Sequence record: ON470593
From: Escherichia phage vB_EcoM-683R1
Direction: 5' to 3' (one strand)
DNA: 32,923 bases
A program made the position numbers and the translations under genes. The notes under the pieces were generated by a model. That model ran no database searches. It worked only from the letters and a program-made list of their open reading frames with translations, and was not told where the DNA came from. Within the stretch, counting starts at the first letter, position 1, and each line of letters begins with the position of its first letter. Of the stretch, positions 18,537-29,791 are shown piece after piece.

Positions 18537-20541
18537 AACTATTAAAGATTTCCTCGTCTCGCTTGGCTTCCGTGTGGATGATGCAGGAGCGAAAAAGTTC
18601 GGTTCTGTCCTCGCCGGTACAACTGCAAATGTCATCAAAATGGGGCTGGCTGTTGAAGGGGCTGCGCTGTCCGTGGTGGCCTTCACGGCTAAGATCGCCT
18701 CCGGCCTGGATAATCTTTACTGGGCGTCACAGCGCACCGGCGCGACGGTCCAGGGAATTCAGTCTATTGGCTATGCGGTTTCGCAGGTTGGCGGCAGTGT
18801 GGACGCTGCGCGATCTTCTCTGGAAAGCCTCTCCCGGTTTATTCGTAACAATCCCGGAGCAGAAGGCTTTCTGAATCGCCTGGGCGTACAGACCCGTGAT
18901 GCCAGCGGTAACATGCGTGACATGGCTGCTATCTTTACGGGCGTTGGACAGAAACTCAGCAGCATGCCGTATTACCGGGCTAACCAGTATGCGCAGATGC
19001 TGGGCATTGACGAAAATACCCTGATGGCTATGCGTCGCGGAGTGGGGCAGTTCAGCGCTCAGTATTCAGAAATGGTGAAAGCGATCGGATTTAATGCCGA
19101 TCAGGCTGCCTTATCGTCAAACCGGTTTATGACCTCGCTGAAATCGCTCGGTGAAATGGCCAGGATGGCGCGGGACAAAATCGGATCGAATCTTGCGGAC
19201 GGACTGGCGGGGCAGATTGATAACNNNNNNNNNNNNNNNNNNNNNNNNNNNNNNNNNNNNNNNNNNATAATTGAAAATTTTCCCAAAATTGAAGTCACCA
19301 TCACAAAGGTCATAAAGGGGATCCTCTGGCTGGGTGAGATAGTCGGGCGGGTAGCATTTCGGATAGTCGATGGTGTCGGAGATATCATCGAGTGGTGGGG
19401 GAAACTGGATGCCGAAACGAAAACCCTGATAGAGGTTATCGGCGGTCTGGTTGTCGCCATGCGGATACTTAACTCTACTTTCTGGATGTCACCTATAGGG
19501 CTGATTACCGGTCTGATCGTGGCTCTCGGTCTCTTGTGGGAAGACTACAAAACATGGAAAGAAGGCGGTAACAGTCTTATCGACTGGGAAAAATGGCAAC
19601 CGGCAATAGATAAAGCGAAGGATGCGATCACCTGGCTTCGTGATCACCTTCTGGAACTAAAAGATGGTGTTGGCGGCTGGCAAAATGCACTGGAAATCCT
19701 TGGTACATTCATCGCGGGTGTCTGGGTATCCAGGGTTCTGGGGGCTTTCGGGAAAATATCAGGTTTGCCGGTCCCGCCGTGGTTAAAAGGCTGGATGGCT
19801 TATGCTGCGTATTTGTACTCTGATCGCGAAAATATTGGTGCCAGTGCGAAGTCATCCTGGGATTACACGAAACAAAATATTGGAGATTCATTGCGCTGGC
19901 TTGGCATTGATACCGATTTTGGTCGTAATCCTCATACCGTAAAAGGCGCAAATATTCAGTCAGATATTCCAGGTGCTGAGCCGGAACAATATGCACAGGC
20001 TACGAAACGAGGAGAACGGAATAACAATCCGGGAAACCTTAATTTTGCTGGTCAGGCAGGGGCTTCTCTTGAACGCCCGGGCGGGCGATTTGCCAGATTT
20101 GAAACTGCCTTTGATGGATTACGGGCTCTTGCTCGTCAGTTAATGCTGTACGCCGGACGGGGAATAAACAGTGTGGAGAAAATTATCTCTACCTGGGCAC
20201 CTGCGTCTGATAATAACAACACAACAGCGTATATCAGGGCTGTATCGCAACGACTGGGAGTGGATCCCCGGGCTGCCCTGAATATGAGCGATCCGCAAAC
20301 CATGTCAGCATTGATGAGCAGCATTATCCAGCATGAGAATGGAAGAAATATCTATTCTCGAGAGCTGATTAATAAGGCTGCCGTGGCGGGAATTAGTGGC
20401 AAAGTGACAGAGGTTAACCAGCAAAATACCTACCACATTTACGGTGGCGGAGATCCGCACGCTGTCGGTAATGAGGTTGCACGTCGGCAACAGTCTGCAA
20501 ATGCTCAGGTCATGCGAAGTAATCAGGTGAGGGTGGGTTAG
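18505..20541 (+). CDS. Tail tape measure protein (TTG start; interrupted by an N-run)
   Basis: 678 aa; transmembrane-like central segments (…LIVALGLLWEDY…); follows the chaperone; C-terminal region with NNPGNLNF motif. Confidence 0.75.
   Translation: MRNGERIMNAETIKDFLVSLGFRVDDAGAKKFGSVLAGTTANVIKMGLAVEGAALSVVAFTAKIASGLDNLYWASQRTGATVQGIQSIGYAVSQVGGSVDAARSSLESLSRFIRNNPGAEGFLNRLGVQTRDASGNMRDMAAIFTGVGQKLSSMPYYRANQYAQMLGIDENTLMAMRRGVGQFSAQYSEMVKAIGFNADQAALSSNRFMTSLKSLGEMARMARDKIGSNLADGLAGQIDNXXXXXXXXXXXXXXIIENFPKIEVTITKVIKGILWLGEIVGRVAFRIVDGVGDIIEWWGKLDAETKTLIEVIGGLVVAMRILNSTFWMSPIGLITGLIVALGLLWEDYKTWKEGGNSLIDWEKWQPAIDKAKDAITWLRDHLLELKDGVGGWQNALEILGTFIAGVWVSRVLGAFGKISGLPVPPWLKGWMAYAAYLYSDRENIGASAKSSWDYTKQNIGDSLRWLGIDTDFGRNPHTVKGANIQSDIPGAEPEQYAQATKRGERNNNPGNLNFAGQAGASLERPGGRFARFETAFDGLRALARQLMLYAGRGINSVEKIISTWAPASDNNNTTAYIRAVSQRLGVDPRAALNMSDPQTMSALMSSIIQHENGRNIYSRELINKAAVAGISGKVTEVNQQNTYHIYGGGDPHAVGNEVARRQQSANAQVMRSNQVRVG
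19225..19266. other. Assembly gap / masked bases (42 N) inside the tape measure gene
   Basis: Run of n characters; length is a multiple of 3, so frame is preserved. Confidence 0.99.
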
Positions 20542-21128: not shown

Positions 21129-21430
21129 TGACAATTCAGGAAATTCCGCTGACAGCGGACAACCAGCAGTTCAGCATCGTCCTGGGTGGTGTCACCTGGC
21201 GGATTAGCATCATATGGCGCGATCTGTACTGGATTATGGACCTGCAGAACGACAGAGGGGAGCCGGTAATCTCCGGTATTCCTCTCGTCACTGGTGCTGA
21301 CCTGCTGGCGCAGTACGCCTGTATGGGGCTTGGTTTTAAGCTGGTGGTGGTCTGTGATGACAACACACAGGATTACCCCACAAAAACTGACCTGGGCGGT
21401 CGCAGCCATTTACTGGTATCAACGGAGTAA
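21128..21430 (+). CDS. Small baseplate-associated protein
   Basis: 100 aa; ATGA-coupled to the upstream gene. Confidence 0.5.
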   Translation: MTIQEIPLTADNQQFSIVLGGVTWRISIIWRDLYWIMDLQNDRGEPVISGIPLVTGADLLAQYACMGLGFKLVVVCDDNTQDYPTKTDLGGRSHLLVSTE

Positions 21431-21432
21431 GC

Positions 21433-22071
21433 ATGTCACAGAACTGGATGAGACATTTCGAGCTGCAGCTTGTGGACGGGAACGGTCAGGGAATTGAGCT
21501 AAGTGATTTCAAAGTCACCTTTACGATCGACTGGTTCAACATCAGCAGCGCGTCCCGGGTAGGGACTATCAAAATTTATAACCTCTCGGCAGATACTGTG
21601 AACCGAATTACCGGGCAGGAGTTTTCGAAAGTGCGTCTGATTGCCGGTTACGACGGTATCGCGCCGGAGGTGTCAGCAAGCGACGTAGGGACCGTGCGGG
21701 AAGTTGACGCGGCGGACGTGGGCCAGAGAGATGGCCGCAACTACGGACTGATTTTCAGCGGTGAAATTCGCTACTCGGTCACAGGAAAAGACAGTCCGGT
21801 TGATACCTACGTCCTGATTCAGGCAGCAGATACTGATCTGGCTTTTGCTACCAGTATAACCTCACAGACGCTGGCTGCCGGTTACACGGTCGCTGATGTG
21901 AACCGTGCGCTGATGAAAGACTTCGAAGCCAAAGGCGCGACCGAAGGCCTGACGCCTGAAATGCCTGCTACTGTATTCCCCCGGGGGCGGGTACTCTTTG
22001 GCATGACGCGGCATCTAATGGATAACGTAGCCGGACAATGTGGCGCAACATGGCAATTCGTGGACGGTTAG
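21433..22071 (+). CDS. Baseplate protein (Mu P-like, N-terminal part if the next ORF is the same gene)
   Basis: 212 aa; ends at TAG 22069-22071 that is in frame with the next ORF. Confidence 0.5.
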   Translation: MSQNWMRHFELQLVDGNGQGIELSDFKVTFTIDWFNISSASRVGTIKIYNLSADTVNRITGQEFSKVRLIAGYDGIAPEVSASDVGTVREVDAADVGQRDGRNYGLIFSGEIRYSVTGKDSPVDTYVLIQAADTDLAFATSITSQTLAAGYTVADVNRALMKDFEAKGATEGLTPEMPATVFPRGRVLFGMTRHLMDNVAGQCGATWQFVDG

Positions 22072-22077
22072 CGCCAG

Positions 22078-22497
22078 ATGGTGGTGAATAACGAATATGT
22101 TCACGAAGCGATTGTGCTCAACAGCGCTACCGGGCTTATTGGAATGCCGCAGCAGACTATCGGTAACGGCGTAAACGTCCGCGCGCTTATTAATCCGAAC
22201 ATCCGGGTTAACGGGCTCATTCAGCTGGATCAGGCTTCCGTCTATCGTACCGCGTTGTCGAACAACGATATTGCGATGGCTGGTGGTCAGATCACCGACC
22301 AGAACACGGACGGAAATATCACGCTCAGCGGCACCACATCGCAGCCTGCCAGCATCGCAACGGATGGCGTTTATATTGTGCGCGGGATTATGTACACTGG
22401 CGACACAAGGGGCCAGGCGTGGTACATGGATATGATGTGTGAAGCGCGTGGCGCGGCGGATCTTGTTTCCTCATCAGCGAGGGAAAGAGGGCTTTAA
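22078..22497 (+). CDS. Baseplate protein (possible C-terminal continuation of 21433..22071)
   Basis: 139 aa; same reading frame as the upstream ORF, separated only by TAG-CGC-CAG. Confidence 0.5.
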   Translation: MVVNNEYVHEAIVLNSATGLIGMPQQTIGNGVNVRALINPNIRVNGLIQLDQASVYRTALSNNDIAMAGGQITDQNTDGNITLSGTTSQPASIATDGVYIVRGIMYTGDTRGQAWYMDMMCEARGAADLVSSSARERGL

Positions 22498-22832
22498 TGA
22501 AACGGTTATGTTTGGCGTTAGTTATGATGGTTACTGCTCCGGCGATGGCTGCAATTCAGTGCGGCAACTACACGATGACCGGTGACGGAATGACTGTTAT
22601 TAACGGTGAAACTGTCACATCACAGAAGATAAAATTTCTGGGAAAAGATGGTGACTATTCAAACATGAAAATGGACATGGGCCTGATGCCTTCCCGTGAT
22701 GGTAACAATTACGGCTTTGAGTTTGTGAAACGTAACGGAAAAGCTTTCCTGAACGTCCAGCTGCTGCAGAACAGCATGGACGCGCCGAAAATCATTGGAT
22801 CTTTCCCGTGTAAAAAAGTGAGCAGCAAGTGA
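22497..22832 (+). CDS. Small secreted/periplasmic protein with Sec signal peptide (cargo gene inside the baseplate module)
   Basis: 111 aa; MKRLCLALVMMVTAPAMA|AIQ signal peptide; two Cys in the mature part; lower GC than flanking tail genes. Confidence 0.6.
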   Translation: MKRLCLALVMMVTAPAMAAIQCGNYTMTGDGMTVINGETVTSQKIKFLGKDGDYSNMKMDMGLMPSRDGNNYGFEFVKRNGKAFLNVQLLQNSMDAPKIIGSFPCKKVSSK

Positions 22833-23341
22833 CAGTTGATGATGATCCTTTGAATTCATTTCAAGACCCTGACTTTCAGGAACTTCTCGGCGGAATTGAT
22901 ATTACTCTTGTTATAAGGTTTTTTAATTATTTTTCGCGTTTCGAATATGCGTTAAAAAGAATTAATTTCAAAAAAACTGATCGTAGAAATTATCTAATCG
23001 GTGCTGACTGGAGCCGCTACGCTACTGATGATACGCGGCCTTTATATCCTACTGGAAATAGAAATGTCGATAGGGCAGTTGAGTATCTATGTCAGCAACC
23101 TGTGAAGCAGCAGAGGCATGATTTTTCGTGGGAGGATAAACCTCCAATCGAACCTCATTCTCTTGCTGAAGCATTAAAGCAGATCCCGTATATAAGAAAT
23201 AATCTCTTTCACGGCGGGAAGTATTTACGTCCCGCCCCCGTTCGTGATGAAAAGTTATTGAAATACTCTATTTATTTGATGCAGTTGTGTTTGATAACTG
23301 ATAATCAGCTTTCTGAATACTTTAATACTATCCACCGATAG
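22829..23341 (+). CDS. Hypothetical protein with HEPN-like R-x4-H motif (RNNLFH); cargo gene
   Basis: 170 aa; GTG start overlapping upstream stop (GTGA); AT-rich codon usage; followed by an intrinsic terminator. Confidence 0.55.
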   Translation: MTVDDDPLNSFQDPDFQELLGGIDITLVIRFFNYFSRFEYALKRINFKKTDRRNYLIGADWSRYATDDTRPLYPTGNRNVDRAVEYLCQQPVKQQRHDFSWEDKPPIEPHSLAEALKQIPYIRNNLFHGGKYLRPAPVRDEKLLKYSIYLMQLCLITDNQLSEYFNTIHR

Positions 23342-23357
23342 TCATTCTTCATGAGAT

Positions 23358-23390
23358 AAAACCTGCCACCCGGCGGGTTTTTTGCTTTTT
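23358..23390 (+). terminator. Intrinsic terminator closing the two-gene cargo insert
   Basis: AAAACCUGCC-ACCC-GGCGGGUUUU hairpin (one G-U pair) followed by UUUUUUGCUUUUU. Confidence 0.65.
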
Positions 23391-23401
23391 GGAGCCTACC
23401 A

Positions 23402-24171
23402 ATGGCAGTAACTGACCAGACCCGCAGTGGCGATCTTGCCGAAACATTTAAATCTGAACGGGAAACAACAAAGAACCAGATCCGTGTCGCCTTGCCTGGC
23501 ATTATTCAGTCATTCGATCCTGACGCGGTGACGGCGGTTGTGCAGCCAGCTATCCGGTCAGTTGAAAAGGATAACGACGGTAACCGCATTACCAAAAATT
23601 ACCCATTGCTGGTGGATGTGCCAGTGGTATTCCCGCGCGGCGGAGGCTGTACGTTGACTTTTCCGGTAAAAGCTGGGGATGAGTGTCTTGTCGTTTTTGC
23701 CGATCGTTGTATTGATTTCTGGTGGCAGAGCGGCGGGATACAGGAGACGGTTGATGACAGAATGCATGATTTATCGGATGCGTTTTGTATTGTCGGTCCC
23801 CAGTCGCAGGCTAGGAAGATTAGCGGTATTAATACCAGTGCCACACAGTTGCGTAGTGACGACGGCAGCACCTATTTTGAGCTTAATCCTGATACCAGGA
23901 AAATTAAAATTGTCGCTCCGGGGGGGCTTGATGTGGTTGCCCCCCTGGCTGATTTTTCTGAGAAAGTAACCATTCATGGCCTGTTAACCTGGATGGGGGG
24001 CATGGTGGGGTCTGTGGNNNNNNNNNNNNNNNNNTTTCTGGTGTGGCTTCAAAAATCACTGGTGCTGTTGAGTTTTTGGGGAGCGTGAAGGCTAACGGCA
24101 AGCCAATCGATGATACGCACACTCATGGTGGTGTTCAGCGCGGTGGAAGCAGTACCGACGGGGTAAACTGA
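23402..24171 (+). CDS. Baseplate spike/hub protein (Mu V / gpV-like), interrupted by a 17-N gap
   Basis: N-terminal part 23402-24017; C-terminal part continues in a different frame after the gap (…SGVASKITGAVEFLGSVKANGKPIDDTHTHGGVQRGG…) to TGA 24169-24171. Confidence 0.55.
24018..24034. other. Assembly gap / masked bases (17 N) inside the baseplate spike gene
   Basis: Run of n characters; length not a multiple of 3, so the apparent frameshift is an artefact. Confidence 0.99.
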
Positions 24172-24524
24172 TGCGATACAGACGTGAAGACGCCGATGGC
24201 GATTACACCTTTGGCAGCGGTGATGACACCTGGCTGATTAACTCACCGGAGGCCGTGGCGCAGGCGGTAAAAACGCGATTCGAATTGTGGTATGGGCAAT
24301 GGTTTCTCGACACCACCGAGGGGACTCCGTGGATCCAGTCCGTACTCGGTAAGCAGAAGCCGGAAACCTACAACCTGGCGATCCGTAAGCGCATCCTCGA
24401 AACGCAGGGCGTTAAATCAATCCTCTCTTTCAATACGACGCTGGATACCACGACCCGACGTGTCATGTTTTCCGCTGAAATCGACACTCTTTATGGAATA
24501 ACGACTGTTACATCGGAGGCGTAA
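24171..24524 (+). CDS. Baseplate wedge protein (Mu W / gp25-like position)
   Basis: 117 aa; ATGA-coupled; between spike and baseplate J genes. Confidence 0.55.
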   Translation: MRYRREDADGDYTFGSGDDTWLINSPEAVAQAVKTRFELWYGQWFLDTTEGTPWIQSVLGKQKPETYNLAIRKRILETQGVKSILSFNTTLDTTTRRVMFSAEIDTLYGITTVTSEA

Positions 24525-26400: not shown

Positions 26401-27194
26401 TGGCGAAAAATGACTTTAAAGCGTTTGCAACGGATCGAAATGCCAATGTTATATCGCAGGAGGAATGGGAAGCGTTGCCCGCGCTTTTATCTGGATTTAC
26501 AGCAGGGAAAGCCTCCAGTGCGCAAGTCAATAAGGTTATTCGGCAGGCCAGCTTTATTGCTGCAGCTCTGGCCCAGTTTGTAAGTGATAAAACGCAACGG
26601 GATGTGCTTGATAATGGTGATCTGCCCGGTTTTGTTGAATTGCTGGGATCGGGGTTTGCTGTTGAATACCTGAGCCGCAAGAATCCGTTTGGCGATATCA
26701 AATCGGACGGCACGGTGAAAACAGCTCTCGAAAACCTTGGTTTGGGAGAAGGTGCCCCAGCTATTGGCGTTCCGTTCTTCTGGCCGTCCGCTGCAATGCC
26801 AAATTCTGTCATCGACAGCTGGTCCGGTATGGTGTTTTTGAAGTTTAACGGGGCGAAATTTTCTGCCTCTGATTACCCTGTGCTGGCGAAAGTGTTTCCT
26901 TCGCTGGTATTACCTGAAGCCCGCGGTGATTTCATTCGTATCTGGGATGACGGGCGAGGTGCAGACGGTGGTCGCGAATTATTAAGCTGGCAGGCAGCTA
27001 CAAACTTTTCTCAGTTTGCCGGGAATATAGGCGATGGTGCGGGCCACACAATTAATTTTCATGATGGTATCGCCGGAAATCAGCCAGGATTTTCACGATT
27101 TAATTTCACCAGTAACTCTGTGGGTGATGGTGTGAATTTTGTTGCCGTCAGACCGCGAAATATTGCATTTAACTTTCTGGTGAGGGCTAAATGA
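26400..27194 (+). CDS. Tail fibre protein with switchable C-terminus (constant part fused to variable part Sv)
   Basis: Start ATG 26400 overlaps upstream stop (TGATG); tail-collar-like motifs (PFFWPS…[17 protein letters not shown]…[12 protein letters not shown]); crossover site inside the gene at about codon 113. Confidence 0.75.
26725..26750 (+). promoter_or_regulatory. Invertase crossover site L (hix/gix-like 12-2-12 site) inside the tail fibre gene
   Basis: CTCTCGAAAACC-TT-GGTTTGGGAGAA; right half-site and core identical to the inverted partner at 28547-28572. Confidence 0.7.
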
Positions 27195-27787
27195 TGACCC
27201 CAATTTTTGATGAAAATGGACTGGCTACAGTGCCGGGCGATATGCGTTGTTTTTATTATGATGCTGAAACATCTGAGTATACGGGCTGGTCTGATGAATA
27301 TATTAATACTGGCGTAAGTATGCCCGCCTGTTCCACTGGAATTAACCCTGGCGAAAACATTCCGGGAAAAGTGGCTGTATTTACAGGTAAGGGATGGAGC
27401 CATGAAGAGGACCATCGCAATGAGACTGTTTACTCAATCGAAAATGGCGCAGCTGTTACAGTGGATTATATCGGTGCCATCAAAGATGGTTATGTCACGC
27501 TTTCACCGTTAACGCCATACGATAAATGGGATGGTGAGAAATGGGTGACGGATACCGAGGCACAGCATAGCGCCGCAGTAGACGCGTCAGAAGCACAGCG
27601 CCAGTCACTGATTGATGCAGCAATGGCTTCCATTAGTCTGATTCAGCTGAAATTACAAGCCGGGCGGAAACTGACGCAGGCAGAAACAACCCGGCTTAAC
27701 GCTGTGCTGGATTACATTGACGCGGTGACGGCAACAGATACCAGCACCGCGCCGGATGTCATCTGGCCTGAACTGCCGGAGGCGTAG
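27191..27787 (+). CDS. tfa: Tail fibre assembly protein (Tfa)
   Basis: 198 aa; conserved C-terminus …[30 protein letters not shown]; ATGA-coupled to the tail fibre. Confidence 0.8.
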
Positions 27788-28199
27788 GCCATTCAATATC
27801 TGGCGCACCGGAAGTATCGACCAGTTCCAGTGCGTCCAGATAATCCAGCCACAAATTATATTGCACCAGTTCCTCACCTTTCAGGCGACCAATCGCCGCT
27901 TTACCAGGCCATTGCTTACTGTTTATGTATTCGTTGACCTGATTAATCAATTGCTGCTTTTTCAGTTCGGCTGCGGCAATTTGTTCCTCATGAGTTGGCG
28001 GTGGAATATCAATCCATGCAGGCATTCCGTCGATGACACCTCTGTATTTTCCTTCTGGTGCTTCCTTCATAAATTCGGCAGCAACAGTGTCGTCAATTTC
28101 GATTCCATCATCGGGCCATTCGCCGGATTCCTGATAAGCGATTTTAAGCTCCACAGGGAAAAACGCATTTTTATCGGCACTGAAAATATATTTCTGCAT
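27759..28199 (-). CDS. Alternative tail fibre assembly protein (Tfa'), opposite orientation
   Basis: 146 aa; conserved C-terminus …[26 protein letters not shown]; convergent with and overlapping tfa. Confidence 0.8.
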   Translation of the reverse strand: MQKYIFSADKNAFFPVELKIAYQESGEWPDDGIEIDDTVAAEFMKEAPEGKYRGVIDGMPAWIDIPPPTHEEQIAAAELKKQQLINQVNEYINSKQWPGKAAIGRLKGEELVQYNLWLDYLDALELVDTSGAPDIEWPTPPAVQAR

Positions 28200-28201
28200 T
28201 T

Positions 28202-28546
28202 CTACCGTCCTATCGAAATATAACTGAATCTGTATTGCTGTGAGATATCACTGGTTGCCACACGCCACGCTGAATTACTGATATGTTCAAAATTTACAGA
28301 CAAAACCTGCGGGGCAGGATTCGACGGGTCTGACTGAACGGCATCAGACATAACACTGACTGAAATCATCGGCTGATTAGGGAATGGTATAGGGAAGTGT
28401 CCACTGATAAAGCGGGTCGTGTTTCCTGAAAAAGTGCCAAACTGAACAATATATCCACCTGGTAGCCTGAACCATCCCGAACCAGAAGCGAATGCTCCCA
28501 TATCCGGTATCTGATTATCTCCTGTGCCCACATTCCGTTTTGCCGC
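28202..28546 (-). CDS. Alternative tail-fibre variable segment Sv' (promoterless; expressed only after inversion fuses it to the constant part)
   Basis: Minus-strand frame is open from crossover site R through TGA at 28202-28204; reads VGLGEAAKRNVGTGDN… with the core dinucleotide at codon positions 2-3, the same phase as in the plus-strand fibre. Confidence 0.6.
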   Translation of the reverse strand, partial: AAKRNVGTGDNQIPDMGAFASGSGWFRLPGGYIVQFGTFSGNTTRFISGHFPIPFPNQPMISVSVMSDAVQSDPSNPAPQVLSVNFEHISNSAWRVATSDISQQYRFSYISIGR

Positions 28547-28572
28547 TTCTCCCAAACCAACGTTTATGAAAA
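28547..28572 (+). promoter_or_regulatory. Invertase crossover site R (hix/gix-like)
   Basis: TTCTCCCAAACC-AA-CGTTTATGAAAA; inverted partner of site L; lies just upstream of the invertase start, as in Gin/Cin/Pin/Hin systems. Confidence 0.7.
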
Positions 28573-28945: not shown

Positions 28946-29791
28946 CTATTGGCGAAGTGGCCATATTTTTCTGTTTTTTAAAAAACTATCTTCAACTATA
29001 TAACTGCAACAATGTTCACTAAGGCCATAAAAACTAATTATTCCATATTTATGAGAAGCTATATCAGACAGTTCTGCTAATACTGTGGCAAGCCAACGAG
29101 CGATGCTAAGAGAATAGAATCTTCCCCACTTTTGAACAATGGTATTTTGTCCAGTACGGATGGAGGCTGATATAAGGTCTTGCATAATGTTGGTACTTTC
29201 ATTCATATACATGACCGTTGTATACGGTGAAAGAGTGGCATTGATAAACCTAGCATTTTCTTCAACACGTCTTTGTTCAACTGTATAATAATAATGTTTT
29301 TCAAGGATACTCTCGGCTACTTCTCCCCACCATTTATTAATAGGTTCATTATTGGTTAAATTGGGGCTGCTTAATGAGGAGAAATTTGCGTAACGTCCCC
29401 GTCGGGCATCAGCAAAGGAATCTAAACATTCAAGTATTTTGTAGGTAATTTTATGTGTAGGACGTGAATATCTCAGAGATAGTTGCATTTTTTTAGAAAT
29501 ACTATCAACCTCGTTGGTTAATTCAATGAGCTTATGTCCAAATTTTCTTACAATATTCTCATCAGGCATTTTCCCTTTGTGTTCAATGGCATAGTGTGCA
29601 ACAAGTATTAGTTTAGCAAGTCTCTCAAAACCTACAGAAAGCCCAAAAAATGCTGTGTAATATTCACCTATTTTGTCTGCATAATTGGCTTTACCTATGG
29701 CTGTTGCCCCAGAACCAATGAGCTGTGTAACTAAAGATGCTTCTCGGCCCAGAGCGTGCCATGCTGGAATATCCCAGGGATTTTTATTCAC
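28946..29791 (-). CDS. Hypothetical protein encoded in the AT-rich islet; candidate accessory/defence gene, function unknown
   Basis: 281-aa ORF, GTG start with AGGAAA RBS 8 nt upstream; low GC; located at the prophage end where cargo genes typically sit. Confidence 0.6.
   Translation of the reverse strand: MNKNPWDIPAWHALGREASLVTQLIGSGATAIGKANYADKIGEYYTAFFGLSVGFERLAKLILVAHYAIEHKGKMPDENIVRKFGHKLIELTNEVDSISKKMQLSLRYSRPTHKITYKILECLDSFADARRGRYANFSSLSSPNLTNNEPINKWWGEVAESILEKHYYYTVEQRRVEENARFINATLSPYTTVMYMNESTNIMQDLISASIRTGQNTIVQKWGRFYSLSIARWLATVLAELSDIASHKYGIISFYGLSEHCCSYIVEDSFLKNRKIWPLRQ

Follow-up and report, generated by a model that had tools for sequence, protein, structure and literature searches.

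We analysed a stretch of DNA of 32,923 nucleotides (nt) from Escherichia phage vB_EcoM-683R1 (sequence record ON470593), referred to here as the window. It is a SEN34-like (Brunovirus-like) temperate myovirus prophage integrated in E. coli. The gene under study, open reading frame 2 (ORF2; 22829..23341, + strand), lies between the genes for the baseplate hub and the central spike and codes for a protein of 170 amino acids (aa). It is the only cargo gene in a slot bounded by the preceding gene, ORF1, and by an intrinsic terminator in front of the spike gene. The protein carries the motifs E39-x3-K43 and R123-N-N-L-F-H128 of a stand-alone HEPN-superfamily protein. The account we favour, with modest confidence in the statement as a whole, is that of a cargo slot of this architecture in which ORF2 serves as a latent ribonuclease (RNase) toxin or abortive-infection gene.

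The cargo slot between the hub and spike genes

The census of this region covered 83 loci (IMG/VR plus annotated loci) containing both ORF1 and the start of the spike gene. The length of the slot in these loci ranged from 62 to 1501 nt. Four of them (L129, L130, L190 and L191) have an empty slot, in which the ORF1 stop is followed by ~25 nt, the terminator hairpin, a ribosome-binding site (RBS) and the spike ATG. The remaining loci show 29 architectures composed of 37 cargo clusters, and ORF2-type genes were found in 5 of the 83. All related prophages examined, which came from E. coli, Klebsiella, Salmonella, Yersinia and Pantoea, have a homologue of ORF1 (38–100% identity) directly 3' of the hub gene. 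The backbone order is thus, very probably, hub, ORF1, terminator and spike, and the slot spans the ORF1 stop to the terminator.

The right border of the slot is the intrinsic terminator at 23358..23390 (+), which was located by hairpin detection and folding. It has a 10-bp stem and a 4-nt loop at 23358-23381, followed by a T-run; the folding energy computed for the 60-nt region is -19.3 kcal/mol (z = -3.3 relative to shuffles). Whatever the cargo, the spike ATG is preceded by 60 conserved nt (...ACCCGCC-ACCC-GGCGGGTTTTTTGCTTTCTGGAGCCTAC..ATG). A CCCGCC-loop-GGCGGG-T6 hairpin was present before the spike gene, behind unrelated cargo, in 9 of the 10 other loci compared; the exception was Yersinia phage YP3 (L003), which lacks it. 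The hairpin was also found in the four loci with an empty slot, and L146 has a different hairpin at this position. The terminator is a backbone element, not cargo.

These results divide the claims of an earlier note on this DNA, in which ORF1 and ORF2 were described as a horizontally acquired, low-GC, two-gene insert with a strong terminator of its own. Both genes and their GTGA overlap are where the note had placed them, and RefSeq has the same two genes in identical DNA. Their lower GC content was reproduced (0.452 for ORF1, below the structural genes, and 0.384 for ORF2, compared with 0.543 for the hub gene and 0.506 for the spike gene), and at third codon positions the values are 0.339 for ORF2 and 0.611 for the hub gene. 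The strength of the terminator was confirmed as well. Its assignment to the insert was not, as the same hairpin stands behind unrelated cargo and in empty slots. Nor do the two genes form an insert, since ORF1 follows the hub in all relatives and ORF2 is confined to a few loci. The description as acquired cargo between baseplate genes fits ORF2 and fails for ORF1, which is fixed backbone. The possibility named in the note, that the genes are conserved components in all related phages, holds for ORF1 and not for ORF2. Prophages having the flanks without the insert, which the note had proposed to look for, exist as far as ORF2 is concerned, namely the four empty slots, and ORF1 is always retained.

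In complete E. coli genomes, the whole 904-bp segment was detected in 25 of 5426. A further 78 genomes gave a partial match; the five of these that were listed covered the first ~320 bp (ORF1). With a wider query, 352 E. coli genomes with related hub or spike DNA were recovered, 25 of which bear ORF2. Across these 352 genomes, hub and spike stand at widely varying distances and enclose different annotated genes, among them those for a YafO-family toxin, for DUF4282 and DUF2335 proteins and for various hypothetical proteins. A comparison of locus L021 with the window gave 92-93.5% identity for the hub, 86% for ORF1 and 90% for the spike, as against 53% for ORF2. Judged from these sequences, the cargo seems either to have undergone allelic replacement or to have evolved fast.

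The commonest cargo (~27 of the 83 loci) consists of a gene for a 243-276-aa protein followed by one for a 123-154-aa HEPN protein of the UPF0332/AF0298 type. The profile of the latter matches PDB entries 9xbd (E 6e-11) and 2hsb (3e-6). It also gave a weak match to PADLOC HEPN_IX (E 1.6e-4), the sole PADLOC match for slot cargo. This two-gene module was observed at L001 (3429-4584), L009 (1377-2530), L135, L201 and ~23 further loci. Its first protein has weak TPR-like matches, its second contains SRAYY...R-x3-DY, and the second gene was left unannotated by RefSeq in L001. The module may be a toxin-antitoxin or defence pair. Other cargo includes a 411-aa coiled-coil T5orf172/MUG113 protein in 11 loci (e.g., L196, 4417-5652), a 275-aa Mrr_cat restriction nuclease (L164, 4439-5266) and a YafO-family toxin preceded by a 190-aa protein (L005, 1398-2388). 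Most slot cargo is without annotation. To judge by the annotated genes, the slot appears to be populated by nuclease and toxin genes in the manner of known prophage defence hotspots (PMC9122126). We found no description of a hub-spike slot with fixed ORF1 and terminator borders in the literature that could be searched. Such a slot appears to be new; HEPN effectors and prophage cargo hotspots are already well known.

ORF2 and its protein family

The GTG start codon of ORF2 overlaps the TGA stop codon of ORF1. All five ORF2-type alleles of the slot (50-55% identity) begin on or beside the ORF1 stop, and the other cargo types follow ORF1 after a gap of 50-330 nt with promoter-like hexamers. For this reason, translation of ORF2 probably depends on that of ORF1.

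The first search with ORF2 returned 27 homologues. A profile search of 1.84 billion representative proteins then gave 2392 clusters at E <= 1e-3. Nearly all members of the family are stand-alone proteins of 155-180 aa. In a few cases (e.g., P0047 and P0055), the protein is joined to the C-terminus of DUF6884, a YaaA-like nucleic-acid-binding domain with a proposed role in nucleotide binding or flipping (PMC11701544). The homologues at least 49% identical to ORF2 are all located in the same slot of related prophages, one of them in Pantoea.

The earlier note had proposed a HEPN RNase motif, RNNLFH, in ORF2, and the family-wide conservation upholds this well. The motif occupies residues 123-128 and continues G-G-K, and the upstream motif lies in the context FSRFEYALK. 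In 128 sequences with 25-35% identity to ORF2, residues E39, R123, N125, H128 and G129 are invariant, and K43 and N124 are conserved in at least 90%. Of 149 representatives, 138 contain RNNLFH and 148 contain R[ND]xxxH. Catalytic HEPN domains are characterised by an Rx4-6H motif in which the arginine is directly followed by a polar residue (N, D or H), and by an Ex3[KR] upstream; the Rx4-6H motif sits where core helix 3 ends and the loop towards helix 4 begins (PMC3710099). In ORF2, R123 is followed by N124. The upstream acidic residue is E39, within Ex3[KR], located in the first long helix of the model as compared with helix 2 in PMC3710099. The AlphaFold model (pLDDT 91.4) has a helix at 112-127, a loop opened by H128 and the next helix at 137-157. 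R123-F127 is accordingly predicted to lie at the C-terminal end of a helix, with H128 at the start of the loop.

We consider it highly likely that ORF2 belongs to the HEPN superfamily; we find no support for placing it in any named HEPN family. Foldseek found no PDB structure that matched the ORF2 model with E < 1. The best PDB match of the family profile was a CRISPR-associated protein, in which RNSVAHGGR was aligned to RNNLFHGGK (E 0.17). The sub-threshold Pfam matches shared by more than one of the 128 members include three HEPN families, Abi_2 (4), HEPN_Apea (2) and HEPN_Swt1 (2), and the exact ORF2 protein is labelled 'Apea-like HEPN domain-containing protein' in UniRef. Alignment of the ORF2 family by hhalign with an AbiV-type neighbour, with Tha-1 of phage 80alpha and with the UPF0332-type slot cargo revealed nothing beyond the catalytic motif. 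The family is captured by neither Pfam, NCBIfam, PADLOC nor named PHROGs despite its more than 2000 clusters. As a minimal HEPN family with no partner, it appears to be new.

Relatives of ORF2 were found in at least 427 species, with one genome scanned per species. The 80 loci listed include Proteobacteria, Bacteroidota, Planctomycetota, Verrucomicrobiota, Chloroflexota, Acidobacteriota and Nitrospirota, as well as one Methanomicrobiales archaeon. Clustering of the two neighbours on each side in 88 loci revealed no conserved partner or antitoxin. The 102 immediate neighbours include type I restriction-modification (R-M) specificity subunits (3), integrases (3), Abi_C (2), a CAP12-type TIR protein, SIR2, a BsuBI/PstI restriction enzyme, Gp49 and transposases, given as raw counts. 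The only addition from a PADLOC scan around distant homologues was type I R-M specificity subunits. The neighbourhood of one distant homologue contains HEPN_AbiV, TIR and Mrr/DEAD genes. To the extent that gene neighbourhoods can indicate it, this fits a defence-island or mobile-element gene.

Two other settings of the family were observed. The Klebsiella siphovirus ST101-KPC2phi6.1 carries a 30%-identical homologue inside its tail module (L048, 4971-5489), between the tail-chaperone region and the tape-measure gene and next to an oppositely oriented helix-turn-helix (HTH) gene. Because this siphovirus is unrelated, the ORF2 family has settled in late structural operons at least twice. In the other setting (L011, 4101-7270), the gene for a distant HEPN homologue of ORF2 (P0016) stands in a tightly spaced run on one strand with genes for an XRE-type HTH protein, an ImmA-like M78 peptidase, a PnuC-like nicotinamide mononucleotide transporter and a NadR-like kinase/adenylyltransferase. 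The run, which recurs on three independent contigs, may represent a regulated module tying the HEPN protein to nicotinamide adenine dinucleotide salvage.

Backbone genes and prophage setting

ORF1 (22497..22832, +; 111 aa) is annotated in RefSeq as 'STY1065/STY2022 family phage-derived protein', and its ATG overlaps the hub stop (TAATG). Its N-terminus reads MKRLCLALVMMVTAPAMA, followed by A, and comprises a Sec-type signal with an AxA site. The mature protein has 93 residues, and Cys22 and Cys105 are invariant in 35 homologues. This agrees with the earlier description of a secreted protein of about 93 mature residues with two cysteines, as does the UniRef label 'Secreted protein' on its homologues. 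The structural model suggests that mature ORF1 is a periplasmic 8-stranded beta-barrel. Its fold is similar to those of periplasmic inhibitor and immunity proteins (PliC and a type VI secretion system immunity protein). The ORF1-type genes across the loci inspected code for 110-115 aa, with 58-98% identity among those of E. coli, YP3 and SEN34. Homologues were observed in L001-L010, L014 and L129-L207, and 410 homologue clusters were counted across Enterobacterales. Direct searches with ORF1 and ORF2 (Pfam, NCBIfam, PADLOC, and phmmer against the PDB) gave nothing usable, PHROGs placed both in families of unknown function only, and literature searches with the protein accessions, the PHROG identifier and the STY1065/STY2022 names gave nothing relevant. 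We rejected ORF1 as a lipoprotein because the E. coli form has no lipobox, and as a baseplate component on account of its signal peptide. ORF1 may be an older moron that has become fixed, e.g., a superinfection-exclusion factor or an inhibitor of wall-degrading enzymes.

The hub gene (21433..22497, +) forms the left flank. Its two halves match consecutive positions of the profile phrog_196, 'baseplate hub' (E 6e-52 and 2e-30). In relatives it is an uninterrupted coding sequence of 1065 nt. In the window, an in-frame amber codon at 22069-22071 (TAG where identical prophages read CAG) splits it into ORFs 21433-22071 and 22078-22497. This is the sole difference of the hub gene from that of L004. 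Among the matches listed (five near-identical genomes), only NZ_CP032145.1 was free of mismatches. Tail assembly is probably impossible for this prophage copy unless the amber codon is suppressed. On the right, the spike RBS (GGAG, 23391-23394) and the central spike gene (ATG at 23402) make up the flank at 23391..24171 (+). The gene matches the PF18352 N-terminal domain (E 4e-44) and is named 'membrane-puncturing spike protein' in RefSeq; its RBS and start codon are kept in relatives. The Mu P-like and V-like labels given to the flanks in the earlier note agree in function with hub and spike.

The region 21400-24200 shows 99.4% identity to Escherichia phages vB_EcoM-606R2, -611R5 and -689R2. 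Salmonella phage SEN34 (Brunovirus) and Yersinia phage YP3 are related to it more distantly. According to the RefSeq annotation of a complete genome whose DNA is identical, the prophage adjoins yfhH/tadA and contains genes for a Q-family antiterminator, terminase, head proteins and myovirus tail proteins. The window has two runs of N, one of 42 bases at 19225-19266 in the tape-measure gene and one of 17 bases at 24018-24034 in the spike gene. The latter represents surplus length relative to the 99.4%-identical phages (2801 query bases for 2784 record bases) and caused an artificial frameshift in the list of ORFs. Further downstream, at 26732-28565, a 20-nt inverted repeat (AAACCTTGGTTTGGGAGAAG, 95% complementary) flanks 1.8 kb of tail-fibre and tail-fibre-assembly genes on both strands, next to a gene annotated in RefSeq as a truncated recombinase. 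The segment looks like an invertible host-range switch of the Mu G-segment or Hin type whose invertase has decayed. A hypothetical gene of 281 aa (28946-29791, opposite strand) lies between the tail-fibre switch and host yfhH, at the end of the prophage. It is a possible second cargo position.

Proposed role of ORF2, its rivals and its significance

We judge the odds that ORF2 acts as a defence or toxin RNase to be about even, on the strength of its motif and gene context. The slot neighbours in relatives (Mrr_cat, T5orf172, YafO and a bona fide HEPN protein) are of the defence and toxin kinds. By analogy with other HEPN proteins, ORF2 would form a homodimer with a composite, metal-independent RNase site. 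It would be latent in the lysogen until a phage infected the cell or the prophage was lost. Once activated, it would cut tRNA, rRNA or mRNA, so that growth would stop and competing phages would be excluded. This mechanism draws on the HEPN literature (PMC3710099) and on the proteins Tha and ApeA. The terminator would keep transcription of the slot out of the spike and later tail genes in the lysogen. During lytic growth, RNA polymerase modified by the Q antiterminator of the prophage would read through it, as suggested by lambdoid Q biology and the Q-family gene present here. Alternatively, the terminator may tune the ratio of upstream to downstream tail proteins. ORF1 would be an independent, periplasmic backbone gene; it is not taken as the partner of ORF2 because it is exported and universal in the phage group.

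Several points weigh against this assignment of ORF2. No Pfam, NCBIfam or PADLOC model matched it at threshold, its low structural scores are a weak point, and the counts of defence genes near its relatives are the raw ones given above. No promoter of its own was found. Its start overlaps the ORF1 stop with no upstream intergenic space, and the only promoter-like site on the + strand upstream of it is a 9-of-12 match inside ORF1. In the promoter scans, promoter-like sites were no commoner than in shuffled sequence. ORF2 may be made only with the late operon, which would fit a lytic role better than defence of the lysogen. Finally, the restraint of so small a stand-alone RNase is unexplained, with no conserved neighbour or antisense ORF at hand.

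The strongest rival sees in ORF2 an RNase that is expressed late and serves lytic growth, where it might act by host shut-off, by destruction of host defence RNAs or tRNAs, or by hindering co-infecting phages. The missing promoter and the translational coupling through ORF1 to the hub gene in the late operon speak for it, as does the homologue in the tail module of the Klebsiella siphovirus. Yet ORF2 is dispensable, being missing from ~93% of close relatives, the other occupants of the slot are of toxin and restriction types and not of lytic-cycle functions, and most members of the family are chromosomal, beside R-M, Abi, TIR or integrase genes. We regard this rival as unlikely. Next comes an addiction toxin that stabilises the prophage by means of an unrecognised antidote (a small RNA or host factor) and has no anti-phage role. 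The YafO toxin pair occupies the same slot in other prophages, and there are antisense promoter-like hexamers inside ORF2; these lie in AT-rich DNA, however, and their number is not above that in shuffled sequence. The family has no MNT or other conserved neighbour. No conserved antisense ORF of the Tha/Ith type was found in ORF2, and Rfam gave no match anywhere in the window. The probability of an addiction toxin is accordingly low, and lower than that of a lytic RNase.

The two remaining explanations are less likely still. One is that ORF1 and ORF2 were acquired together as a module with its own terminator, made up of an envelope sensor or excluder and a HEPN effector. The GTGA overlap, the GC content of both genes below that of the flanks, and the five slot alleles that all overlap or abut the ORF1 stop are in its favour. 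Nevertheless, ORF1 occurs without ORF2 in 78 of the 83 loci and has nothing after it in four, the ORF2 family occurs without ORF1 outside these prophages in at least 427 species, and the terminator is common to loci with unrelated cargo. Moreover, mature ORF1 is exported and cannot meet a cytoplasmic RNase. We hold the joint module to be very improbable, and with it the functional pairing of secreted and HEPN proteins put forward in the earlier note: each is widespread without the other, and they belong to different compartments. The other explanation, the least probable of all, is a non-catalytic HEPN-like helical protein, e.g., a nucleotide- or protein-binding regulator. Some HEPN families are indeed non-catalytic, but such domains have usually lost the motif (PMC3710099), and in the ORF2 family the arginine, the following asparagine, the histidine and the upstream glutamate are invariant at 25-35% identity.

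Among known HEPN systems, the HepT toxins of HEPN-MNT pairs (PDB 5yep, 7ae2 and 8xdj) have an MNT partner, which ORF2 lacks in the 88 loci; the gene upstream of ORF2 encodes a secreted protein predicted to be a beta-barrel. The HepT motif is Rx4HxY, whereas that of ORF2 continues H-G-G-K and has no tyrosine. ORF2 has an additional beta-hairpin and a PPKxQ/W insert, and no sequence-profile relationship to HepT is detectable. ApeA was reportedly described by Gao et al. in 2020 as a single-gene HEPN anti-phage system. ORF2 resembles it as a single HEPN protein with no partner gene. Two of the 128 members of the ORF2 family have weak PF18739 matches, and ORF2 itself has neither a PF18739 nor a PADLOC match. 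The ApeA family has been reported within R-M operons (PMC3710099), and some members of the ORF2 family are likewise found inside such operons. ApeA is a protein of ~583 aa with N-terminal, Mid and split HEPN domains, which forms decamers and has a ligand pocket with its N-terminal domain (bioRxiv 10.64898/2026.01.26.701840). ORF2, unlike ApeA, consists of the HEPN domain only, in 170 aa, with no N-terminal or Mid domain.

Single-protein HEPN defences have been shown experimentally for Tha (PMC11087260) and ApeA (bioRxiv 10.64898/2026.01.26.701840). Tha, found in S. aureus phages, is a HEPN RNase encoded by the prophage and activated through tail proteins (PMC11087260). Tha and ORF2 are both prophage-borne single HEPN proteins with RNxxxH, and Tha is a precedent for a protein of this kind that protects lysogens and has to be kept silent in the lytic cycle of its own prophage. 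The two also differ: Tha has 301 aa with an N-terminal region and lies beside int with an overlapping antisense gene, ith, whereas ORF2 lies in the baseplate operon and has no conserved antisense ORF. Alignment of the two by hhalign covered only the 14-residue motif, at a probability of 0.7%.

The slot itself resembles the hotspots of P2-like phages and P4-like satellites (Rousset et al. 2022, PMC9122126) in having conserved flanks and swappable low-GC cargo with nucleases and toxins, HEPN proteins included. The combination of conserved flanks with many alternative cargo sets that marks a hotspot was found here in the 29 architectures and 37 clusters. The phage family and the position are different, the present slot being in the baseplate operon between the gene for a periplasmic protein and a terminator. 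In contrast to the earlier hotspots, most of its cargo has no known defence annotation, and any anti-phage role of it is putative. A classical lambdoid moron, in the Juhala/Hendrix definition, is an extra gene with its own promoter and terminator. Lambdoid morons are the subject of Cumby et al. 2012, as cited in PMC9122126. The likeness concerns ORF2 only, which has a deviant GC content, stands between genes that are adjacent in relatives, in a late operon, and is followed by a terminator. It departs from a moron in two ways: the terminator belongs to the backbone, and ORF2 shows translational coupling to the preceding backbone gene in place of a promoter of its own.

Annotations of these phages should assign ORF1 and the terminator to the backbone and not to acquired cargo. 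The hub-spike slot, with at least 37 mostly unannotated cargo clusters, is a practical place to search for anti-phage and toxin genes in Enterobacterales. If ORF2 is an active, phage-triggered RNase, it would represent a new and very widespread minimal family of HEPN defence or toxin proteins. The most far-reaching proposal, which we regard as doubtful, is that this 170-aa HEPN protein, with neither partner nor sensor domain, is a self-contained anti-phage sensor and effector. It would then be among the smallest single-gene RNase defences, belong to a family of more than 2000 clusters in many bacterial phyla, and mark a new hub-spike hotspot in SEN34-like prophages. Were this true, the question would arise of how a 170-residue enzyme with no partner senses infection and spares its host, and the other unannotated cargo of the slot would be a source of new defence genes.

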